Source of the DNA: a virus | Lineage: Duplodnaviria; Heunggongvirae; Uroviricota; Caudoviricetes | DNA length: 10,801 bases | IMG/VR virus record: IMGVR_UViG_2529292726_000024 | Span: 1 to 10,801 of that record | Reading direction: 5' to 3' (one strand) | Shown: one piece after another, positions 5,189-10,801 of the stretch | Numbering within the stretch: position 1 is the stretch's first letter | Layout of the letters: each line of letters opens with the position of its first letter | Notes under the pieces: model-generated | What the model saw: only the letters and a program-made list of their open reading frames with translations | Databases searched by the model: none | What the model was told of the DNA's origin: nothing | Position numbers and translations under genes: made by a program

Positions 5189-5243
5189 GTTTGAACAGAG
5201 GAGATTGATGGCCTTCCTACATCACGGCCATCAGGAGGAATAC

Positions 5244-5513
5244 ATGTCAGCACTAAAAAAGCAGCGCATCGATTTGAGATTAACCGATGACGATAAAAGC
5301 ATCATCGAGGAAGCTGCCGCAATGTCTAACCAGAGCATTACTCAGTTTATGGTTAGCAGTGCATCTGAACGTGCCGTGAAAGTTATAGAGCAACACCGTA
5401 GACTAGTTCTGAATGAAGAATCCTGGAATCTGGTTATGGACGCTATAAGCAATCCTCCGGCACCGAACGACAAGCTGAAACGAGCTGCTGATCGTCTGAA
5501 AAGCATGGAGTAG
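5244..5513 (+). CDS. type II antitoxin, DUF1778 (RHH) family, AtaR/TacA/KacA-like
   Basis: MSALKKQRIDLRLTDDDKS... matches the conserved N-terminus of DUF1778 antitoxins as I remember them. SD AGGAGG 5 nt upstream of ATG 5244; an alternative in-frame ATG at 5208 also has an SD. Stop is 7 nt before the toxin start. Confidence 0.8.
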   Translation: MSALKKQRIDLRLTDDDKSIIEEAAAMSNQSITQFMVSSASERAVKVIEQHRRLVLNEESWNLVMDAISNPPAPNDKLKRAADRLKSME

Positions 5514-5520
5514 TTTACTC

Positions 5521-6042
5521 GTGGATAATATAAAGATAGAAATTTTCTCTGGAGAGAAAGATTATGATTTGAATGGTTTTGATTGCGGTGAAGAATCACT
5601 AAATGCCTTTTTAACCAACCACTTAAAAAGGCAGCATGAGGGAAAAATTCTTCGCGCTTATGTGCTTTGCACGAAAGAAGGCAGACCAAAAGTGTTAGGG
5701 TATTACACTTTGTCAGGTAGCTGCTTTGAAAAGGAGTCCTTACCTTCAAGAAGCCAGCAAAAGAAGGTACCTTATCGGAATGTTCCAAGTGTTACTTTGG
5801 GTAGGCTGGCTTTGGACAAGTCCCTTCAAGGTCAAGGATTTGGCTCAATGCTTGTAACACATGCAATGCGCGTTGTGTACAATGCATCTCTTGCTGTAGG
5901 CATTCATGGACTTTTCGTTGAGGCGTTAAATGACAAAGCCAAGGCGTTTTATAAAAGTTTAGACTTTATCCAGCTGGTTGGTAACAACGAGCGTTCTTTG
6001 TTCTATCCTACAAAATCTATCGAAAAATTGTTCGAAGAATAA
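5521..6042 (+). CDS. GNAT-family N-acetyltransferase toxin (AtaT/TacT/ItaT-like, aminoacyl-tRNA acetylating)
   Basis: 173 aa, GTG start; acetyl-CoA-binding motif LQGQGFGSML; conserved FDCGEE and VGIHGLFVEALN segments remembered from AtaT-family toxins; directly downstream of the DUF1778 antitoxin. Confidence 0.8.
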   Translation: MDNIKIEIFSGEKDYDLNGFDCGEESLNAFLTNHLKRQHEGKILRAYVLCTKEGRPKVLGYYTLSGSCFEKESLPSRSQQKKVPYRNVPSVTLGRLALDKSLQGQGFGSMLVTHAMRVVYNASLAVGIHGLFVEALNDKAKAFYKSLDFIQLVGNNERSLFYPTKSIEKLFEE

Positions 6043-6073: not shown

Positions 6074-6289
6074 TCACCAACCGCAAACTCTCTCTCCCAT
6101 CGTATTGTGAAAAAGGATTTGGCGTTCGGTTTCTTCGGTCATCACATCATTATTGCTGATATAGATAGGCCCAGCTCCATCGCAGAACAATACGCTGGCG
6201 GTTTGTGGTTTAATGACGCACCCACTTATCATACAACTCACGATGAACGGCAGAAGCATCTTTCTGACGTATTTTATTGCTCGTCTCAT
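6074..6289 (-). CDS. candidate o-spanin-like outer-membrane lipoprotein, overlapping the 3-prime end of the upstream gene in the +1 frame
   Basis: Lipoprotein signal MRRAIKYVRKMLLPFIVSCMISGC with lipobox ISGC (alternative start at ATG 6259). Overlaps the 6210-6461 gene by 80 nt in another frame, the classic overlapped Rz/Rz1 arrangement. Mature part is not proline-rich, so the assignment is tentative. Confidence 0.4.
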   Translation of the reverse strand: MRRAIKYVRKMLLPFIVSCMISGCVIKPQTASVLFCDGAGPIYISNNDVMTEETERQILFHNTMGERVCGW

Positions 6290-6461
6290 TCACCACTTCC
6301 ACTGTGCTTTGAAGTCGTTTTCTGTCTTCCTGTTTTGCCTTCTCTTCCATTGCTCGTCGCGCCGCATTCCCGCCCATCGTGTAAGCGCCGACAAGAACGA
6401 AAAGAACGGCAGCCAGCGTAATCAAAGCAACTTTTAGCTTTGTCATCAGGCTGCCTAGCAT
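6210..6461 (-). CDS. candidate i-spanin-like protein (N-terminal TM helix, charged periplasmic helix)
   Basis: ATG at 6461-6459 with SD AAGGGA upstream; MLGSLMTKLKVALITLAAVLFVLVGAYT is a single N-terminal TM, followed by a charged helical region (AARRAMEEKAKQEDRKRLQ...). Short (83 aa) for an Rz-like protein. Confidence 0.42.
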   Translation of the reverse strand: MLGSLMTKLKVALITLAAVLFVLVGAYTMGGNAARRAMEEKAKQEDRKRLQSTVEVVNETSNKIRQKDASAVHRELYDKWVRH

Positions 6462-6462
6462 A

Positions 6463-7155
6463 TTAGACCATCCCTTTCTGGTGTTTTCTTCCCTGCGACC
6501 AGGCAATGAATCCTGCCACAACAATAGTGGCAATACCGAAGATGATGCGTACTGTATCCCCGCTAGAGATATGACCTTGTGCTTTATCCATAGCAGCGGA
6601 AACCTGCGGCATAACATCGGCCAGCTGCGCCAGACCAATACCTGCTGTAACAGTTGCGCCTGCGGTTTCTTTAGTTACAGGAACAGCCTTCACGGTTTTC
6701 ACCGGCTTAACAACGCCAGCTCGACGCAGACCTTCCTCAATAACTTCTACCGCATACCAGGTGTTCAGCGTTTTTAGCGGGCCTCGGCCATTCTCGTGGC
6801 GAATGATTGCCTCAACCAAAGGTCGAAGGATGTCGTAATCATGCAGATCGATGATCATGTCTGCGGTTACACCAACGGCTTTAGACACCTCATTAATGTA
6901 GGCGTCAGTATTGTTTTCATTCGGCGGTGCCCAACGTTCAATAACTTCACGAATGGTATCGATACTTGAGCCGTCTTTTGCGCGACGTTTGTCGTGGTAG
7001 GTAATTAGAGTCACCGCCAGCGCACGAATCCCCCAAACAGGGTCTTTAAACGTGCAAAAGCGCGGTTCGTCTGGATTCGCAACCAGACCTTGCCACGGTG
7101 ATCCTTTATCAAGATTACCGGGGTTATTATTACGAATGCCTCTCGGAGTCTTCAT
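6463..7155 (-). CDS. tail-anchored membrane protein (C-terminal TM); endolysin-like only by its position in the cassette, unverified
   Basis: 230 aa from ATG 7155 (SD AGGAG 7 nt upstream; the track start at 7182 is a GTG). N-terminal soluble domain with RNNNPGNL, C-terminal TM IIFGIATIVVAGFIAW. No catalytic motif of a known muralytic family recognised. Confidence 0.4.
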   Translation of the reverse strand: MKTPRGIRNNNPGNLDKGSPWQGLVANPDEPRFCTFKDPVWGIRALAVTLITYHDKRRAKDGSSIDTIREVIERWAPPNENNTDAYINEVSKAVGVTADMIIDLHDYDILRPLVEAIIRHENGRGPLKTLNTWYAVEVIEEGLRRAGVVKPVKTVKAVPVTKETAGATVTAGIGLAQLADVMPQVSAAMDKAQGHISSGDTVRIIFGIATIVVAGFIAWSQGRKHQKGMV

Positions 7156-7168
7156 CCTTGATCTCCTG

Positions 7169-7492
7169 TTATTGCAGTCCACTTTTTACGCCATACGCGG
7201 CTAACCCCAAAAGCAGTGCGGTAATAATGAACGACGTTATTTTAGAAACAATGCCGCCAAAGAACCCACTTGAGATGGAATCTAACCGGTTAAGGAGTTT
7301 GTCCAGATTGGAGTGTTGAATACTATGTTGCGCCGGGGTCATATCACCAAAGTAGGTTTTCAGCTGATCATTGACCTCCTGGCCAATTTCTTCACGTAGC
7401 TCTTTACCTAATTTGCCAACAACCTCCCGAGCAACGATCGCGGCAATACGCTCAACTTGCTCTGTTGTAACGCCCGCCATCTCGTTCGACAT
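7169..7492 (-). CDS. small tail-anchored membrane protein (holin-like by position, unverified)
   Basis: ATG at 7492 has a strong SD GGAGG 5 nt upstream (alternative ATG at 7504 lacks one). About 85-aa charged N-terminal region then a single C-terminal TM ITSFIITALLLGLAAYGV. Stop is 13 nt before the next gene. Confidence 0.4.
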   Translation of the reverse strand: MSNEMAGVTTEQVERIAAIVAREVVGKLGKELREEIGQEVNDQLKTYFGDMTPAQHSIQHSNLDKLLNRLDSISSGFFGGIVSKITSFIITALLLGLAAYGVKSGLQ

Positions 7493-7573
7493 GTTTTCCT
7501 CCATGAAAAGTCAAATCGGGATGGCGGATTTATATCACATTTCACCCTTTTGTTGTAGGTGTGTACTTACCTA

Positions 7574-7807
7574 TCATTCAGCATTGCAACCGATTGATGA
7601 GAAAGCACCTACTCCAACCCATCGCCAGTTATAGATGCTACCCGCTTTGTATAAGGTATAGTCGTTCACTTTTTTAACAGCATATATGGGTATGACTGTC
7701 TCCTGTCCACCAATGATAGCTTCACCATAACATATAGGTGTCGGCAATTTCTGGCAGCCAGTAAGAGAGAGAACAACAGCTATTGTTAGAAATAATCTTT
7801 TCATCAT
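7574..7807 (-). CDS. small lipoprotein, 77 aa (candidate Cor-like superinfection-exclusion lipoprotein)
   Basis: Signal peptide MMKRLFLTIAVVLSLTGC with lipobox LTGC; starts 4 nt after the stop of the 202-aa gene; size and position after the tail-fibre genes recall Cor-type lipoproteins of lambdoid/N15-like phages, but sequence similarity is not verified. Confidence 0.55.
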   Translation of the reverse strand: MMKRLFLTIAVVLSLTGCQKLPTPICYGEAIIGGQETVIPIYAVKKVNDYTLYKAGSIYNWRWVGVGAFSSIGCNAE

Positions 7808-7814
7808 TTACTCA

Positions 7815-8423
7815 TCAGTTATACAGATTTCTATTTATTACCGGTACTCTGCCATTTACGCTAAAACTATGGCCGCCATTAAGTTGGTTTACGAATATCG
7901 AGCTAACAGTATTTCCATATGCCGCATATCCATAAACCATTGTCATGGCTCCGCCCGGTACTGGAACAGCGAACACATTCGCATATGTTGGGATTATCGC
8001 TGGAGGGTAATCAAAAACATGCCCTCCAGAGCTGTTCCACTCCGTATTATTAAGAAAGGTAAATGAAAGTGGGATATTTGCCGTATTATAGATTTCCTCC
8101 CCTTGTGCATTGAAAAAACTCATGCCCCAAGTTTCTTTTTTGGCTATACCTTTCGAAAATACGTATATCGTGGCACTAGAGTCGCTACCCTGACCTCCGA
8201 AACTGTAAATCACCTGGTTGTTACGCACTATTCTGTTGGCTATTAATGAAACAGCTTTCGAATAGGCAACAAAAATAATCGGTGAACGATCTGGAGATAT
8301 TTTGGTGTTAAACTCTGTTCCGCCGGACAAAGAAACAACCTGCTTTCTCTGAAAAACGATAGGAGACAAAGAAGGAGACATCCAGACCTTCCCGTCAGAT
8401 CGATATATCTTGCTTCCGTACAT
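7815..8423 (-). CDS. hypothetical protein, 202 aa, Gly/Ser/Asn/Tyr-rich, probably beta-rich
   Basis: ATG at 8423-8421 overlaps the stop of the upstream gene as TAATG (translational coupling). No TM segment or catalytic motif seen. Confidence 0.55.
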   Translation of the reverse strand: MYGSKIYRSDGKVWMSPSLSPIVFQRKQVVSLSGGTEFNTKISPDRSPIIFVAYSKAVSLIANRIVRNNQVIYSFGGQGSDSSATIYVFSKGIAKKETWGMSFFNAQGEEIYNTANIPLSFTFLNNTEWNSSGGHVFDYPPAIIPTYANVFAVPVPGGAMTMVYGYAAYGNTVSSIFVNQLNGGHSFSVNGRVPVINRNLYN

Positions 8424-8677
8424 TATTTTTGAAAAACCAATATGTTTAAATTACCACTAGCTCCAGACCACGAAATGGTATTTCCAGAAACCGTAAGACT
8501 TGTGTACTTTCCATTGGTTACGTCCATTATGTAATAGTCGATTCCCAATCCCGCCTCAACCTCATATGTTCTACTTCCTGAACCAGAGGGAGTAAAATAA
8601 TCGAGGTAATAAACAGGGGCCAACGCATTGACCATCTCCTGTCTTGATGGCGACCAAACCTGTGCACCATAGCTCAT
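8423..8677 (-). CDS. hypothetical protein, 84 aa
   Basis: ATG at 8677 with SD AAGGA 7 nt upstream; first gene after the tail-fibre stop; coupled to the 202-aa gene. No motif recognised. Confidence 0.5.
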   Translation of the reverse strand: MSYGAQVWSPSRQEMVNALAPVYYLDYFTPSGSGSRTYEVEAGLGIDYYIMDVTNGKYTSLTVSGNTISWSGASGNLNILVFQK

Positions 8678-8702
8678 AAATATATCCTTATACTTTTAAG
8701 CA

Positions 8703-8725
8703 GGGGCTGGTTTAGCTCCAGCCCC
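8703..8725. other. GC-rich hairpin between the tail-fibre gene and the downstream cassette
   Basis: GGGGCTGG (8703-8710) pairs with CCAGCCCC (8718-8725), 7-nt loop. U-rich flank only on the plus strand, so it is not a convincing terminator for the minus-strand operon; possibly an RNA-stability or processing element. Confidence 0.3.
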
Positions 8726-8737
8726 GATTGAAGTTGT

Positions 8738-10534
8738 TTATTCTTTAGGTGAATTTAACTTCGTTTCAAGCTCCTCAACCCTTTTGGTCAATTGCTGAAT
8801 ATGATGAATGAGTGGTACAACCAAACGCTCATACATCACTCCTTCAGCGACCATACCATTTGAGGAAATACCTTCTGGAGAATCATTATTTGTTGGTTCA
8901 CGCCAATGGACATATTGCGGGGCAATCTCACCAACCTCTTCAGCAATAAGGCCGTAATACCCCCAATCCTTTCGGTCACCTCGACAAATTGAACGATACC
9001 AAACAGGTCTTAATGACAAAAGTTCATCAGCATATCGATCTTGTAATGTTTCAATATCCTTTTTATAGCGCCTTGAAGACGTTGAACGCCAAACTGTATT
9101 GATACCTGGGTTTGGATCAATGTACATATTGGCACCGCTAGTAGTTGTGCCAATATCCCATATAGCAAACCCTCCACTACCGCCTGATTTGACAACCAGT
9201 GTTTCAGCAACAATATCCAGGTTGCCACTATAGCCTGTCAGTGATGATCTGCTTGCATAGGAACTTAGAAGGTTTGCTACCTCTGTTTTCGTGTAAGCAT
9301 TAAGGTTAGCCGCAGTCAAAGTTATATCGGCAGAGCCATCAAACGCCACACCAGCAATTTTCCTTGCTGTCTGCAATTTTGTGGCGGTTGCGGCATTACC
9401 AGTAGTGTTCTGATTACCAGTGGCATTCACACCAGGAATGGAGTCCCTTGATGTATATACCTGCGCCCACGCTGACCATGCCGCAACTGTGTAATCTCTT
9501 CGGGAGCGAATGAAAACCGGCGCATGTGCACCGCTCGTACCACTCCAGCCAATAAGCAACTCGCCCTCACCAGCAGCACTCGCACCTTTCATGTGCAATA
9601 CGTTGCCATACGTGGTCGGGTAGCTATTGTTGTACACCTCATACATTTGAATGCCAGCAGTGCCTTGAGTAGAGCCGCTTAACGCCGTAACTCGGCCACG
9701 AGATACCAATGTATTAATATTGATATCGCCTGAACCATCAAACTTAACACCATTGATGTTTCTCGCTGTTTGCAACTTCGTAGCTGTTGAAGCATTACCG
9801 TTCAAACTACCATTTACGCCACCAGTCACATTTAGTCCATTACCAATTGATACAGCACCGCTGGTATTATTAATTGTAATAGGTCGCAAACCGTTCCATG
9901 AACCTAATGTGTCTCCTGATGCTGTTAGCAGGAAATATGTGTTCGCCCCATCATTACGGATAAAGAACCCAAAGTTACCGTAAGCAATGCGGAAACCATT
10001 TGCATATTTTGAAACGATCTCACCAGAAGACGTTAACCCTCCAGATAATGTGCCACCTGAAAGCGGTAATGCTCCTACATCAGAAGCTGTTGGTTTGTTT
10101 CTAGTGTTATACGCTCTGCGCCATCCAGGTGAATAACTTGAGCCATTAGACACATAGATAAACTCCGCATTAGTGAGTGCACCAGAGACATTTGTCGTAG
10201 TGGCCGTTGTTATTCGAATGGTGTAATTGTTGGTATTATTGCTGAATACTTCTATCACAGCACCCGCCAGTGGAATAATGCCACAACCAGTTTCACTGTC
10301 TGGTATGGATGCACTATTCGCATACGCCCATGCACAACGAGCGATCCATGCTTTCGTACTGAATGCCCCGTTATTTTGCAACAAAGTAACTAACTGGGCT
10401 GTCGTTATTGCCCCTCCATTACTTCCTGTAGTTAACCAACCAGTAGGAGATGCCGGGCAACCTATATTTGCTGGCGACAAGGCAATATTTGCCGAGCCGT
10501 CAAACGACACCCCATTGATAGTACGCGCAGTCTG
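8738..10534 (-). pseudogene. tail fibre protein with C-terminal S74 intramolecular-chaperone domain, 5-prime truncated by IS2 insertion
   Basis: Three copies of the tail-fibre repeat LQTAR-INGV-FDGS; C-terminal domain with SSRRYKKDI (S74 auto-cleavage consensus) and ...VPLIHHIQQLTKRVEELETKL. The reading frame runs into the IS2 left end at 10535, so the first ~45 codons of the 643-aa track ORF derive from IS2. Confidence 0.8.
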
Positions 10535-10801
10535 TAGACTGCCCCCCTGAATCTCCAGACAACCAGTATCACTTAAATAAGTGATAGTCTTAATACTAGT
10601 TTTTAGACTAGTCATTGGAGAACAGATGATTGATGTCTTAGGGCCGGAGAAACGCAGACGGCGTACCACACAGGAAAAGATCGCAATTGTTCAGCAGAGC
10701 TTTGAACCGGGGATGACGGTCTCCCTCGTTGCCCGGCAACATGGTGTAGCAGCCAGCCAGTTATTTCTCTGGCGTAAGCAATACCAGGAAGGAAGTCTTA
10801 C
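10535..10801 (+). mobile_element. IS2 (IS3 family), left end, partial (runs off window)
   Basis: Sequence from TAGACTG at 10535 through the insC start matches the IS2 left end as I remember it (near-identical, one or two mismatches in the terminal repeat). Boundary good to about 3 bp. Confidence 0.85.
10626..10801 (+). CDS. insC: IS2 transposase OrfA (InsC), N-terminal part
   Basis: [58 protein letters not shown] is the recognised InsC N-terminus; SD GGAG upstream; ORF continues beyond the window. Confidence 0.85.

Follow-up and report, generated by a model that had tools for sequence, protein, structure and literature searches.

A diverged cor gene in an optional cassette between the tail and lysis genes of an SSU5-like phage-plasmid of Escherichia coli, with FhuA as the probable target of its product

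The stretch of DNA analysed here, 10,801 nucleotides long and called the window below, is, going by its megablast matches, part of a non-integrated SSU5-like E. coli phage-plasmid of roughly 100-115 kb. It carries genes for a DnaB-like helicase and ParA, a GNAT/RHH toxin-antitoxin pair, a lysis cassette, cor, two further small genes, a tail-fibre gene and one end of an IS2 element (Table 1). Read along the minus strand, the order is J (which lies outside the window), the lateral tail fibre, an 84-aa protein, a 202-aa protein, cor, a spacer, a holin-like gene, the endolysin and Rz/Rz1. The o-spanin ORF of the lysis cassette (6074-6289, PHROG 1275) is nested with the Rz gene (6210-6638, PHROG 1026). 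Between parA and the lysis genes, positions 5205-6042 of the plus strand encode an RHH-type antitoxin of 102 aa and a GNAT acetyltransferase toxin of 173 aa; the pair is annotated in Cyrano as an antitoxin with a KacT-type toxin, and pECAZ162_2 has at this site, on the opposite strand, two hypothetical genes of no relation to the pair.

Table 1. Position of cor, of the parts of its product and of the neighbouring features in the window
Feature	Coordinates	Strand	Basis or remark
cor CDS	7574..7807	minus	77-aa precursor if read from the first ATG; stop codon 7574-7576
Signal peptide, residues 1-17 (MMKRLFLTIAVVLSLTG)	7757..7807	minus	sequence reading
Lipobox L15-T16-G17-C18	7754-7765	minus	sequence reading
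Mature lipoprotein C18-E77, 60 aa, 6.6 kDa	7577..7756	minus	small beta-sheet fold (predicted)
Spacer between cor and the holin-like gene, 69 nt	7505..7575	minus	conserved SSU5-type backbone (lysis module) resumes here
202-aa protein, cassette gene 2	7815..8423	minus	PHROG 425, E 5.8e-49; homolog of N15 gp23, T1 gp31, HK022 gp26
84-aa protein, cassette gene 1	8423..8677	minus	PHROG 557, E 2.4e-24; homolog of N15 gp22, T1 gp32, HK022 gp25
Lateral tail-fibre gene, 3' part, C-terminal ~598 aa	8738..10534	minus	Gp34_trimer E 7e-31, Peptidase_S74 E 5e-7, tail-fibre PHROGs
IS2 end within the tail-fibre gene	10535..10801		95.5-99.6% identity to annotated IS2; IS2-family transposase features

The tail-fibre gene is incomplete. 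Its intact homolog in pECAZ162_2 (3774 nt) aligns only up to window position 10534; the 3' 1797 nt of the gene are still contiguous with the cassette, and the rest has been cut off upstream by IS2. The junction between IS2 and the gene (10534/10535) occurs in none of 5,426 complete E. coli genomes. With its lateral tail-fibre gene disrupted by IS2, the present phage-plasmid may have a defect in adsorption, yet it retains cor.

The first-pass annotation of this locus had described a 77-aa ORF with a clean LTGC lipoprotein signal. The ORF is there, on the minus strand, which had been left unstated, and its translation reads MMKRLFLTIAVVLSLTGCQKLPTPICYGEAIIGGQETVIPIYAVKKVNDYTLYKAGSIYNWRWVGVGAFSSIGCNAE, but its start is likelier to lie one codon further in. 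Indeed, one natural allele (L009) has ACG in place of the first ATG, and the RefSeq protein is 76 aa long; cor therefore probably starts at the second ATG, at 7804, and yields a precursor of 76 aa. The mature protein is the same whichever ATG starts translation. As for the lipoprotein signal, it is present as described: the N-terminus of the precursor is MMKRLFLTIAVVLSLTG followed by CQK, with cleavage before Cys18, and consists of a basic n-region (KR), a hydrophobic core and the lipobox L-T-G-C, whose Cys is invariant in an alignment of 64 sequences. The Pfam lipid-attachment motif LPAM_1 scores 16.6 bits, under its cutoff of 20; this generic, sub-threshold motif is the sole Pfam match of the ORF, and Pfam holds no Cor family.

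The residue that follows the lipid-bearing Cys is Gln and not Asp. Under the Lol sorting rule, this +2 residue predicts outer-membrane targeting of Cor, which we infer to be lipidated and to sit in the inner leaflet of that membrane. The two remaining Cys of the mature protein, Cys9 and Cys57 (C26 and C74 of the precursor), presumably form an intramolecular disulfide.

That the product resembles Cor had been guessed from its size, lipobox and position; family profiles and pairwise alignments now give this guess the evidence that it lacked, and the value of the result lies chiefly in the quality of the annotation. The protein reaches 80.1 bits (E 9e-23) with the NCBIfam equivalog NF047972, "phage exclusion lipoprotein Cor", the cutoff of which is 31; residues 2-75 align to positions 1-77 of the 78 in this profile. 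PHROG 1119, "Cor superinfection exclusion protein", matches it at E 7.8e-30 over profile positions 1-76 of 78, with 104 bits as compared with 105 for T1 Cor and 112 for N15 Cor. The alignment to the Cor proteins of phi80, N15 and HK022 that the first-pass annotation had proposed as a check gave significant similarity, at 42-47% identity: HK022 Cor is 47% identical (BLASTP, E 2e-24), and N15 Cor and phi80 Cor are 42-43% identical, each being recovered by tblastn at 42% and E 2e-19. When the mature proteins are compared, the window Cor shares 45-47% identity with the lambdoid Cors and T1 Cor shares 31-36% with them; the window protein falls within the range of sequences covered by the T1 and lambdoid Cors, which are linked to FhuA. 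A profile search of a large protein database, with a 6-member alignment as the query, returned 263 homologs in Enterobacterales, called Cor wherever the source gives a name. A single-sequence query of the same database gave 4 hits only, the word index being weak on a 77-aa query. By these profiles and alignments, the product of 7574-7807 is a genuine, full-length and conserved member of the Cor family of phage exclusion lipoproteins. The gene is, moreover, already known: the identical protein carries the Cor name in public databases (RefSeq WP_021520500.1, "cor: phage exclusion lipoprotein Cor"), and identical DNA on RefSeq plasmids bears the annotation cor.

The Cys that mark the family are in place: C18, C26 and C74, like G56, do not vary among the 64 aligned sequences, and the spacing of the mature Cys (1/9/57) is that of T1 Cor. 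Of the core motifs GG and AG-Y-P-F-N-W-x-W-V, the window Cor has G33, G34, A55, G56, W61, W63 and V64. The near-invariant P58 and F59 are Ile and Tyr in the window and Val and Phe in SSU5; the family motif AG-Y-P-F-NW accordingly reads AG-S-I-Y-NW in the window (region 7634-7645, residues 55-58) and AG-S-V-F-NW in SSU5.

Other identities were considered for this small ORF. A chance ORF was rejected in view of the matches to the family HMMs, at E 8e-30 and 9e-23, and of the conservation and the excess of synonymous changes described below. A Bor/Lom-type virulence lipoprotein was rejected, since no hit to such a family was obtained, and so was an o-spanin of the Rz1 type, as Cor is the only PHROG match and the spanin pair is located elsewhere. 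The PADLOC models of anti-phage defence matched neither cor nor its two partner genes.

The position of the gene, which had been likened to the cor site of lambdoid and N15-like phages, proves to be just that, with cor as the last member of a three-gene cassette known from such phages. The order PHROG 557, PHROG 425, PHROG 1119 is common to the window, N15, T1 and HK022, and by annotation to phi80 and SSU5 also. The cassette directly follows J in T1 (gp32, gp31, cor), N15 (gp22-24), phi80 (gp22, gp23, cor) and HK022 (gp25, gp26, cor). PHROG 557 takes in the N15, T1 and HK022 counterparts of the 84-aa protein as well, and the counterparts of the 202-aa protein in the same three phages match PHROG 425 at E 5e-71 to 1e-75. 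Between the window and the FhuA phages, the identity of the partner proteins is as low as 19-28%, and it is chiefly by profile that they can be recognised. The 202-aa protein, a candidate tail-tip receptor-binding or accessory protein, is 75.6% identical to that of SSU5 and 29-32% identical to those of Tunavirus phages. The 1-nt overlap of the first two cassette genes is kept in the window, N15, T1, HK022 and phi80. In the window, a gap of 7 nt separates the stop codon of the 202-aa gene from the ATG of cor.

The databases give the gp23-like protein as 188 aa, with a start at window position 8381; the SSU5 counterpart lies at 11381-11989 of the SSU5 locus (L003). When the ORF is read from 8423 as 202 aa, its N-terminus can be aligned to N15 gp23, T1 gp31 and HK022 gp26. 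The annotated 188-aa start is therefore probably wrong, since the longer N-terminus aligns and the 1-nt overlap is regained.

Homologs of the 202-aa protein, at 23-26% identity, are widespread in Stx-converting and 933W-like phages, and Cor homologs (58% identity) are found in some Stx phages, short-tailed ones (vB_EcoP_...) included. The families of the cassette therefore extend past the siphoviruses that are known to use FhuA.

The expression context of cor in the window differs from that in HK022, N15 and phi80. The gap upstream of cor is 7 nt in the window as against 107-111 nt in HK022, N15 and phi80; a promoter-like site lies in this gap in N15, and in N15 and phi80 cor is followed by a strong terminator with a 9-bp stem. 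Consensus scans, which are weak evidence, predicted no promoter-like or terminator-like sites flanking cor in the window. Since the gene is coupled to the tail-fibre and receptor-binding protein genes and runs into the lysis cassette without a promoter gap or terminator of its own, cor is probably made at least within the late tail-to-lysis transcript, unlike an autonomous moron, a reading that leans in part on these weak scans.

How common is the cassette in its lineage? Among 5,426 complete E. coli genomes in RefSeq, the holin-like gene of the backbone is present in 216 (~4%) and the window allele of cor, at 95.7-100% nucleotide identity, in 68 (~1.3%). Both genes are plasmid-borne in every case, with no chromosomal copy. 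The cassette is thus optional, being carried by 68 of the 216 genomes with the SSU5-type backbone. The cor ORF is intact, and purifying selection is seen in a comparison of E. coli alleles with up to 4.3% difference in DNA: cor and both genes upstream show an excess of synonymous changes, with pN/pS of 0-0.45 from small counts, and the amino-acid changes in Cor are confined to residue 49 and the C-terminal tail.

The SSU5-like phages Cyrano and PhiR41_1 are without all three cassette genes. In blastn comparisons, window positions 6900-7575 are 99.0% identical to Cyrano and 95.7% identical to PhiR41_1, and nothing aligns over 7576-9255. The homology to these cassette-less relatives stops at 7575, within the cor stop codon. 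The variable host-range region is therefore bounded on its proximal side by cor, and the spacer is part of the lysis module. Another SSU5-like element without cor, CP054387.1 (Escherichia phage CMS-2020a), has at 88719-89168, well away from the tail-fibre locus, a distant PHROG-425-like match with 27% identity and 75% query coverage; this may be a paralog of the gp23-like protein that belongs to the backbone.

A cassette-positive plasmid and the cassette-negative Cyrano share 98.9% identity over the C-terminal 183 aa of J. A covariation of the presence of the cassette with the C-terminus of J, as expected if the partner proteins dock on a matching J tip, was not found in this comparison. As the presence of the cassette does not follow the J tip here, a link between cassette and receptor stays putative in this lineage. 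An optional cassette on a constant J tip is a small, testable addition to the work on receptor-specificity loci.

What could such a protein do in the cell? The AlphaFold2 model, built from the 64-sequence alignment, has a mean pLDDT of 87, rising to 93-94 over residues 21-70, and consists of the signal-peptide helix followed by a four-stranded beta unit. A Foldseek search of the PDB with this model gave no significant match. In a structural comparison with 48,164 chains, FhuA-bound Llp of T5 is the single best match. No sequence homology to Llp was detected, and a sequence-profile search of the PDB shows Llp only at E 0.3. The fold predicted for Cor is thus Llp-like, T5 Llp being its closest counterpart. 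Llp is periplasmic and binds the plug and the periplasmic face of FhuA, where it captures a non-native state of the plug; the loops EL7 and EL8 turn inward and cover the site at which phages bind (PMC9586334). The same study notes that Cor proteins share the terminal disulfide of Llp and probably act alike (PMC9586334). A more recent report likewise finds a shared predicted fold, and stresses that the way in which Cor works at the molecular level has yet to be solved (bioRxiv 10.64898/2026.03.26.714494). As quoted in the literature, cor alone sufficed to inactivate FhuA in earlier work.

The receptor can be approached through the company that cor keeps. In the study that describes the "extended cor cassette", T1, HK022, N15, ES18 and phi80 are all noted as FhuA-dependent, and so are 10 of the 10 BASEL phages with the full cassette, whereas Cor-like proteins that lack one or both partners are associated with BtuB (PMC13164509). 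The locus downstream of gpJ has been read as encoding the true receptor-binding proteins together with a cognate exclusion lipoprotein (PMC8594841; bioRxiv 10.64898/2026.04.02.716166). Our literature searches on phage-plasmids with Cor and FhuA returned no functional work on an SSU5-type Cor, and those on the receptors of SSU5 and phage-plasmids and Cor, and on PhiR41_1, returned nothing relevant.

Taken together, the ORF is the cor gene of an SSU5-like phage-plasmid, and we consider it likely that its product blocks FhuA by a mechanism like that of Llp. The 60-aa mature protein, held by its Cys9-Cys57 disulfide, would bind the plug and the periplasmic face of the TonB-dependent ferrichrome transporter FhuA and fix it in a non-native state. 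The extracellular loops of FhuA would then refuse the receptor-binding proteins of phages, and transport would be jammed. Cells that produce Cor would in this way resist the FhuA-dependent phages T1, T5, phi80, HK022 and N15, as well as the element's own relatives, and progeny virions would be spared from loss on FhuA in cell debris. We infer the choice of FhuA as the target, the allosteric nature of the blockade, the disulfide and the timing of expression from the comparisons above.

The molecular route is one point on which a different reading has to be weighed. FhuA could be inactivated in a manner unlike that of Llp, through other outer-membrane proteins or through the two cassette partners, which would alter the environment or the accessibility of FhuA. 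We regard this as unlikely, given that FhuA-bound Llp tops the structural matches, that the terminal disulfide is common to Llp (PMC9586334) and that cor was enough for the inactivation in the earlier work quoted above. The target itself is a second point. The protein may be a true Cor-family lipoprotein that acts, in SSU5-type elements, not on FhuA but on a different outer-membrane receptor, for instance BtuB or some further TonB-dependent transporter, and that excludes other phages. Cor-like lipoproteins do exist in BtuB-dependent phages (PMC13164509), exclusion lipoproteins for other receptors occupy the same locus (PMC8594841; bioRxiv 10.64898/2026.04.02.716166), and the SSU5-type subgroup alters the near-invariant Y-P-F; furthermore, the partner proteins have diverged to 19-28% identity and the window Cor is merely 57-59% identical to that of SSU5. 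However, the BtuB-associated Cor-like proteins of the BASEL phages miss at least one partner and the window has the full, FhuA-linked cassette (PMC13164509), the NF047972 score is far over its cutoff, and divergence as such does not take the window Cor out of the range of the FhuA-linked T1 and lambdoid Cors. A change of target thus appears quite unlikely. A bolder form of the same idea holds that the SSU5-type Cor has been retargeted off FhuA, or that the cassette is a portable receptor module which, on one and the same J tip, switches the terminal receptor and the matching exclusion together. The retargeting is suggested by the altered YPF, by cor being the fastest-diverging gene of the cassette, by its late-operon setting and by its gain and loss with the partners on an unchanged J tip; we hold both versions to be rather improbable. 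Were the portable module real, phage-plasmids would change receptor and exclusion in a single step.

A role outside exclusion is, in our estimate, extremely improbable. The gene adjoins the holin-endolysin-Rz/Rz1 genes and has no predicted promoter of its own, its host element appears crippled by the IS2 in the tail-fibre gene, and two thirds of the related plasmids do without the cassette, all of which would suit an unexpressed or decaying passenger or a spanin-like accessory of lysis. But a decaying gene would sit badly with an ORF that is intact, under purifying selection and identical in many plasmids, and a lysis accessory with a protein that has strong homology to Cor and none to spanins, in an element that has its o-spanin as a separate ORF (6074-6289). 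Moreover, the cor-less Cyrano and PhiR41_1 retain the entire lysis module, and for this reason cor cannot be counted as part of it.

If FhuA is indeed blocked by an Llp-like Cor that is expressed from the plasmid, strains that carry the element would resist T1, T5 and phi80, which is relevant to the choice of therapy phages. FhuA also serves as the entry point for other ligands, and carriers of cor would probably resist colicin M, microcin J25 and albomycin as well, at the expense of ferrichrome uptake.

In comparison with known systems, the likeness to T5 Llp (PDB 8A60, 7QJF) lies in the predicted fold and the terminal Cys pair, whereas at the level of sequence the two have no detectable homology. 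The Cor of T1 (ST30), a virulent phage, shares PHROG 1119, the 1/9/57 spacing of the mature Cys and the cassette partners with the window protein, but is only 22-28% identical to it, and T1 cor stands on the opposite strand, with convergent transcription. The Cors of HK022, phi80 and N15 (and mEp167) are nearer: they belong to the same NF047972/PHROG 1119 family, are of the same size and are 42-49% identical, and they have in common with the window Cor the lipobox Cys, two further Cys, the GG and the AG..NWRWV core. In these phages too the gene comes third, after the gp22-like and gp23-like genes, and lies downstream of the tail genes. The window protein departs from them by S-I-Y in place of Y-P-F and by a linker past the lipid-bearing Cys that is three residues shorter. 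The setting differs also, since the host element is a circular SSU5-like phage-plasmid of ~110 kb and not a lambdoid or N15-like phage, and the lateral tail-fibre gene, which comes after cor in the HK022, phi80 and N15 systems, occupies the interval between J and the cassette in the window.

The closest phage homolog is SSU5_025 of Salmonella phage SSU5, at 57-59% identity, which has borne the name "Cor-like protein" since its deposition. The gene order of SSU5 is that of the window (tail fibre, 84 aa, ~200 aa, cor, holin, endolysin, spanins), with the differences that SSU5 has an extra tail-fibre adhesin gene and Salmonella as its host. Between the two elements, Cor is the most diverged gene product of the cassette: it is 59% identical, whereas the 84-aa protein reaches 68% and the 202-aa protein 76%. 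What is mildly new here is the context only, namely a diverged, optional, late-operon cor cassette that is carried by SSU5-like phage-plasmids on an unchanged J tip.
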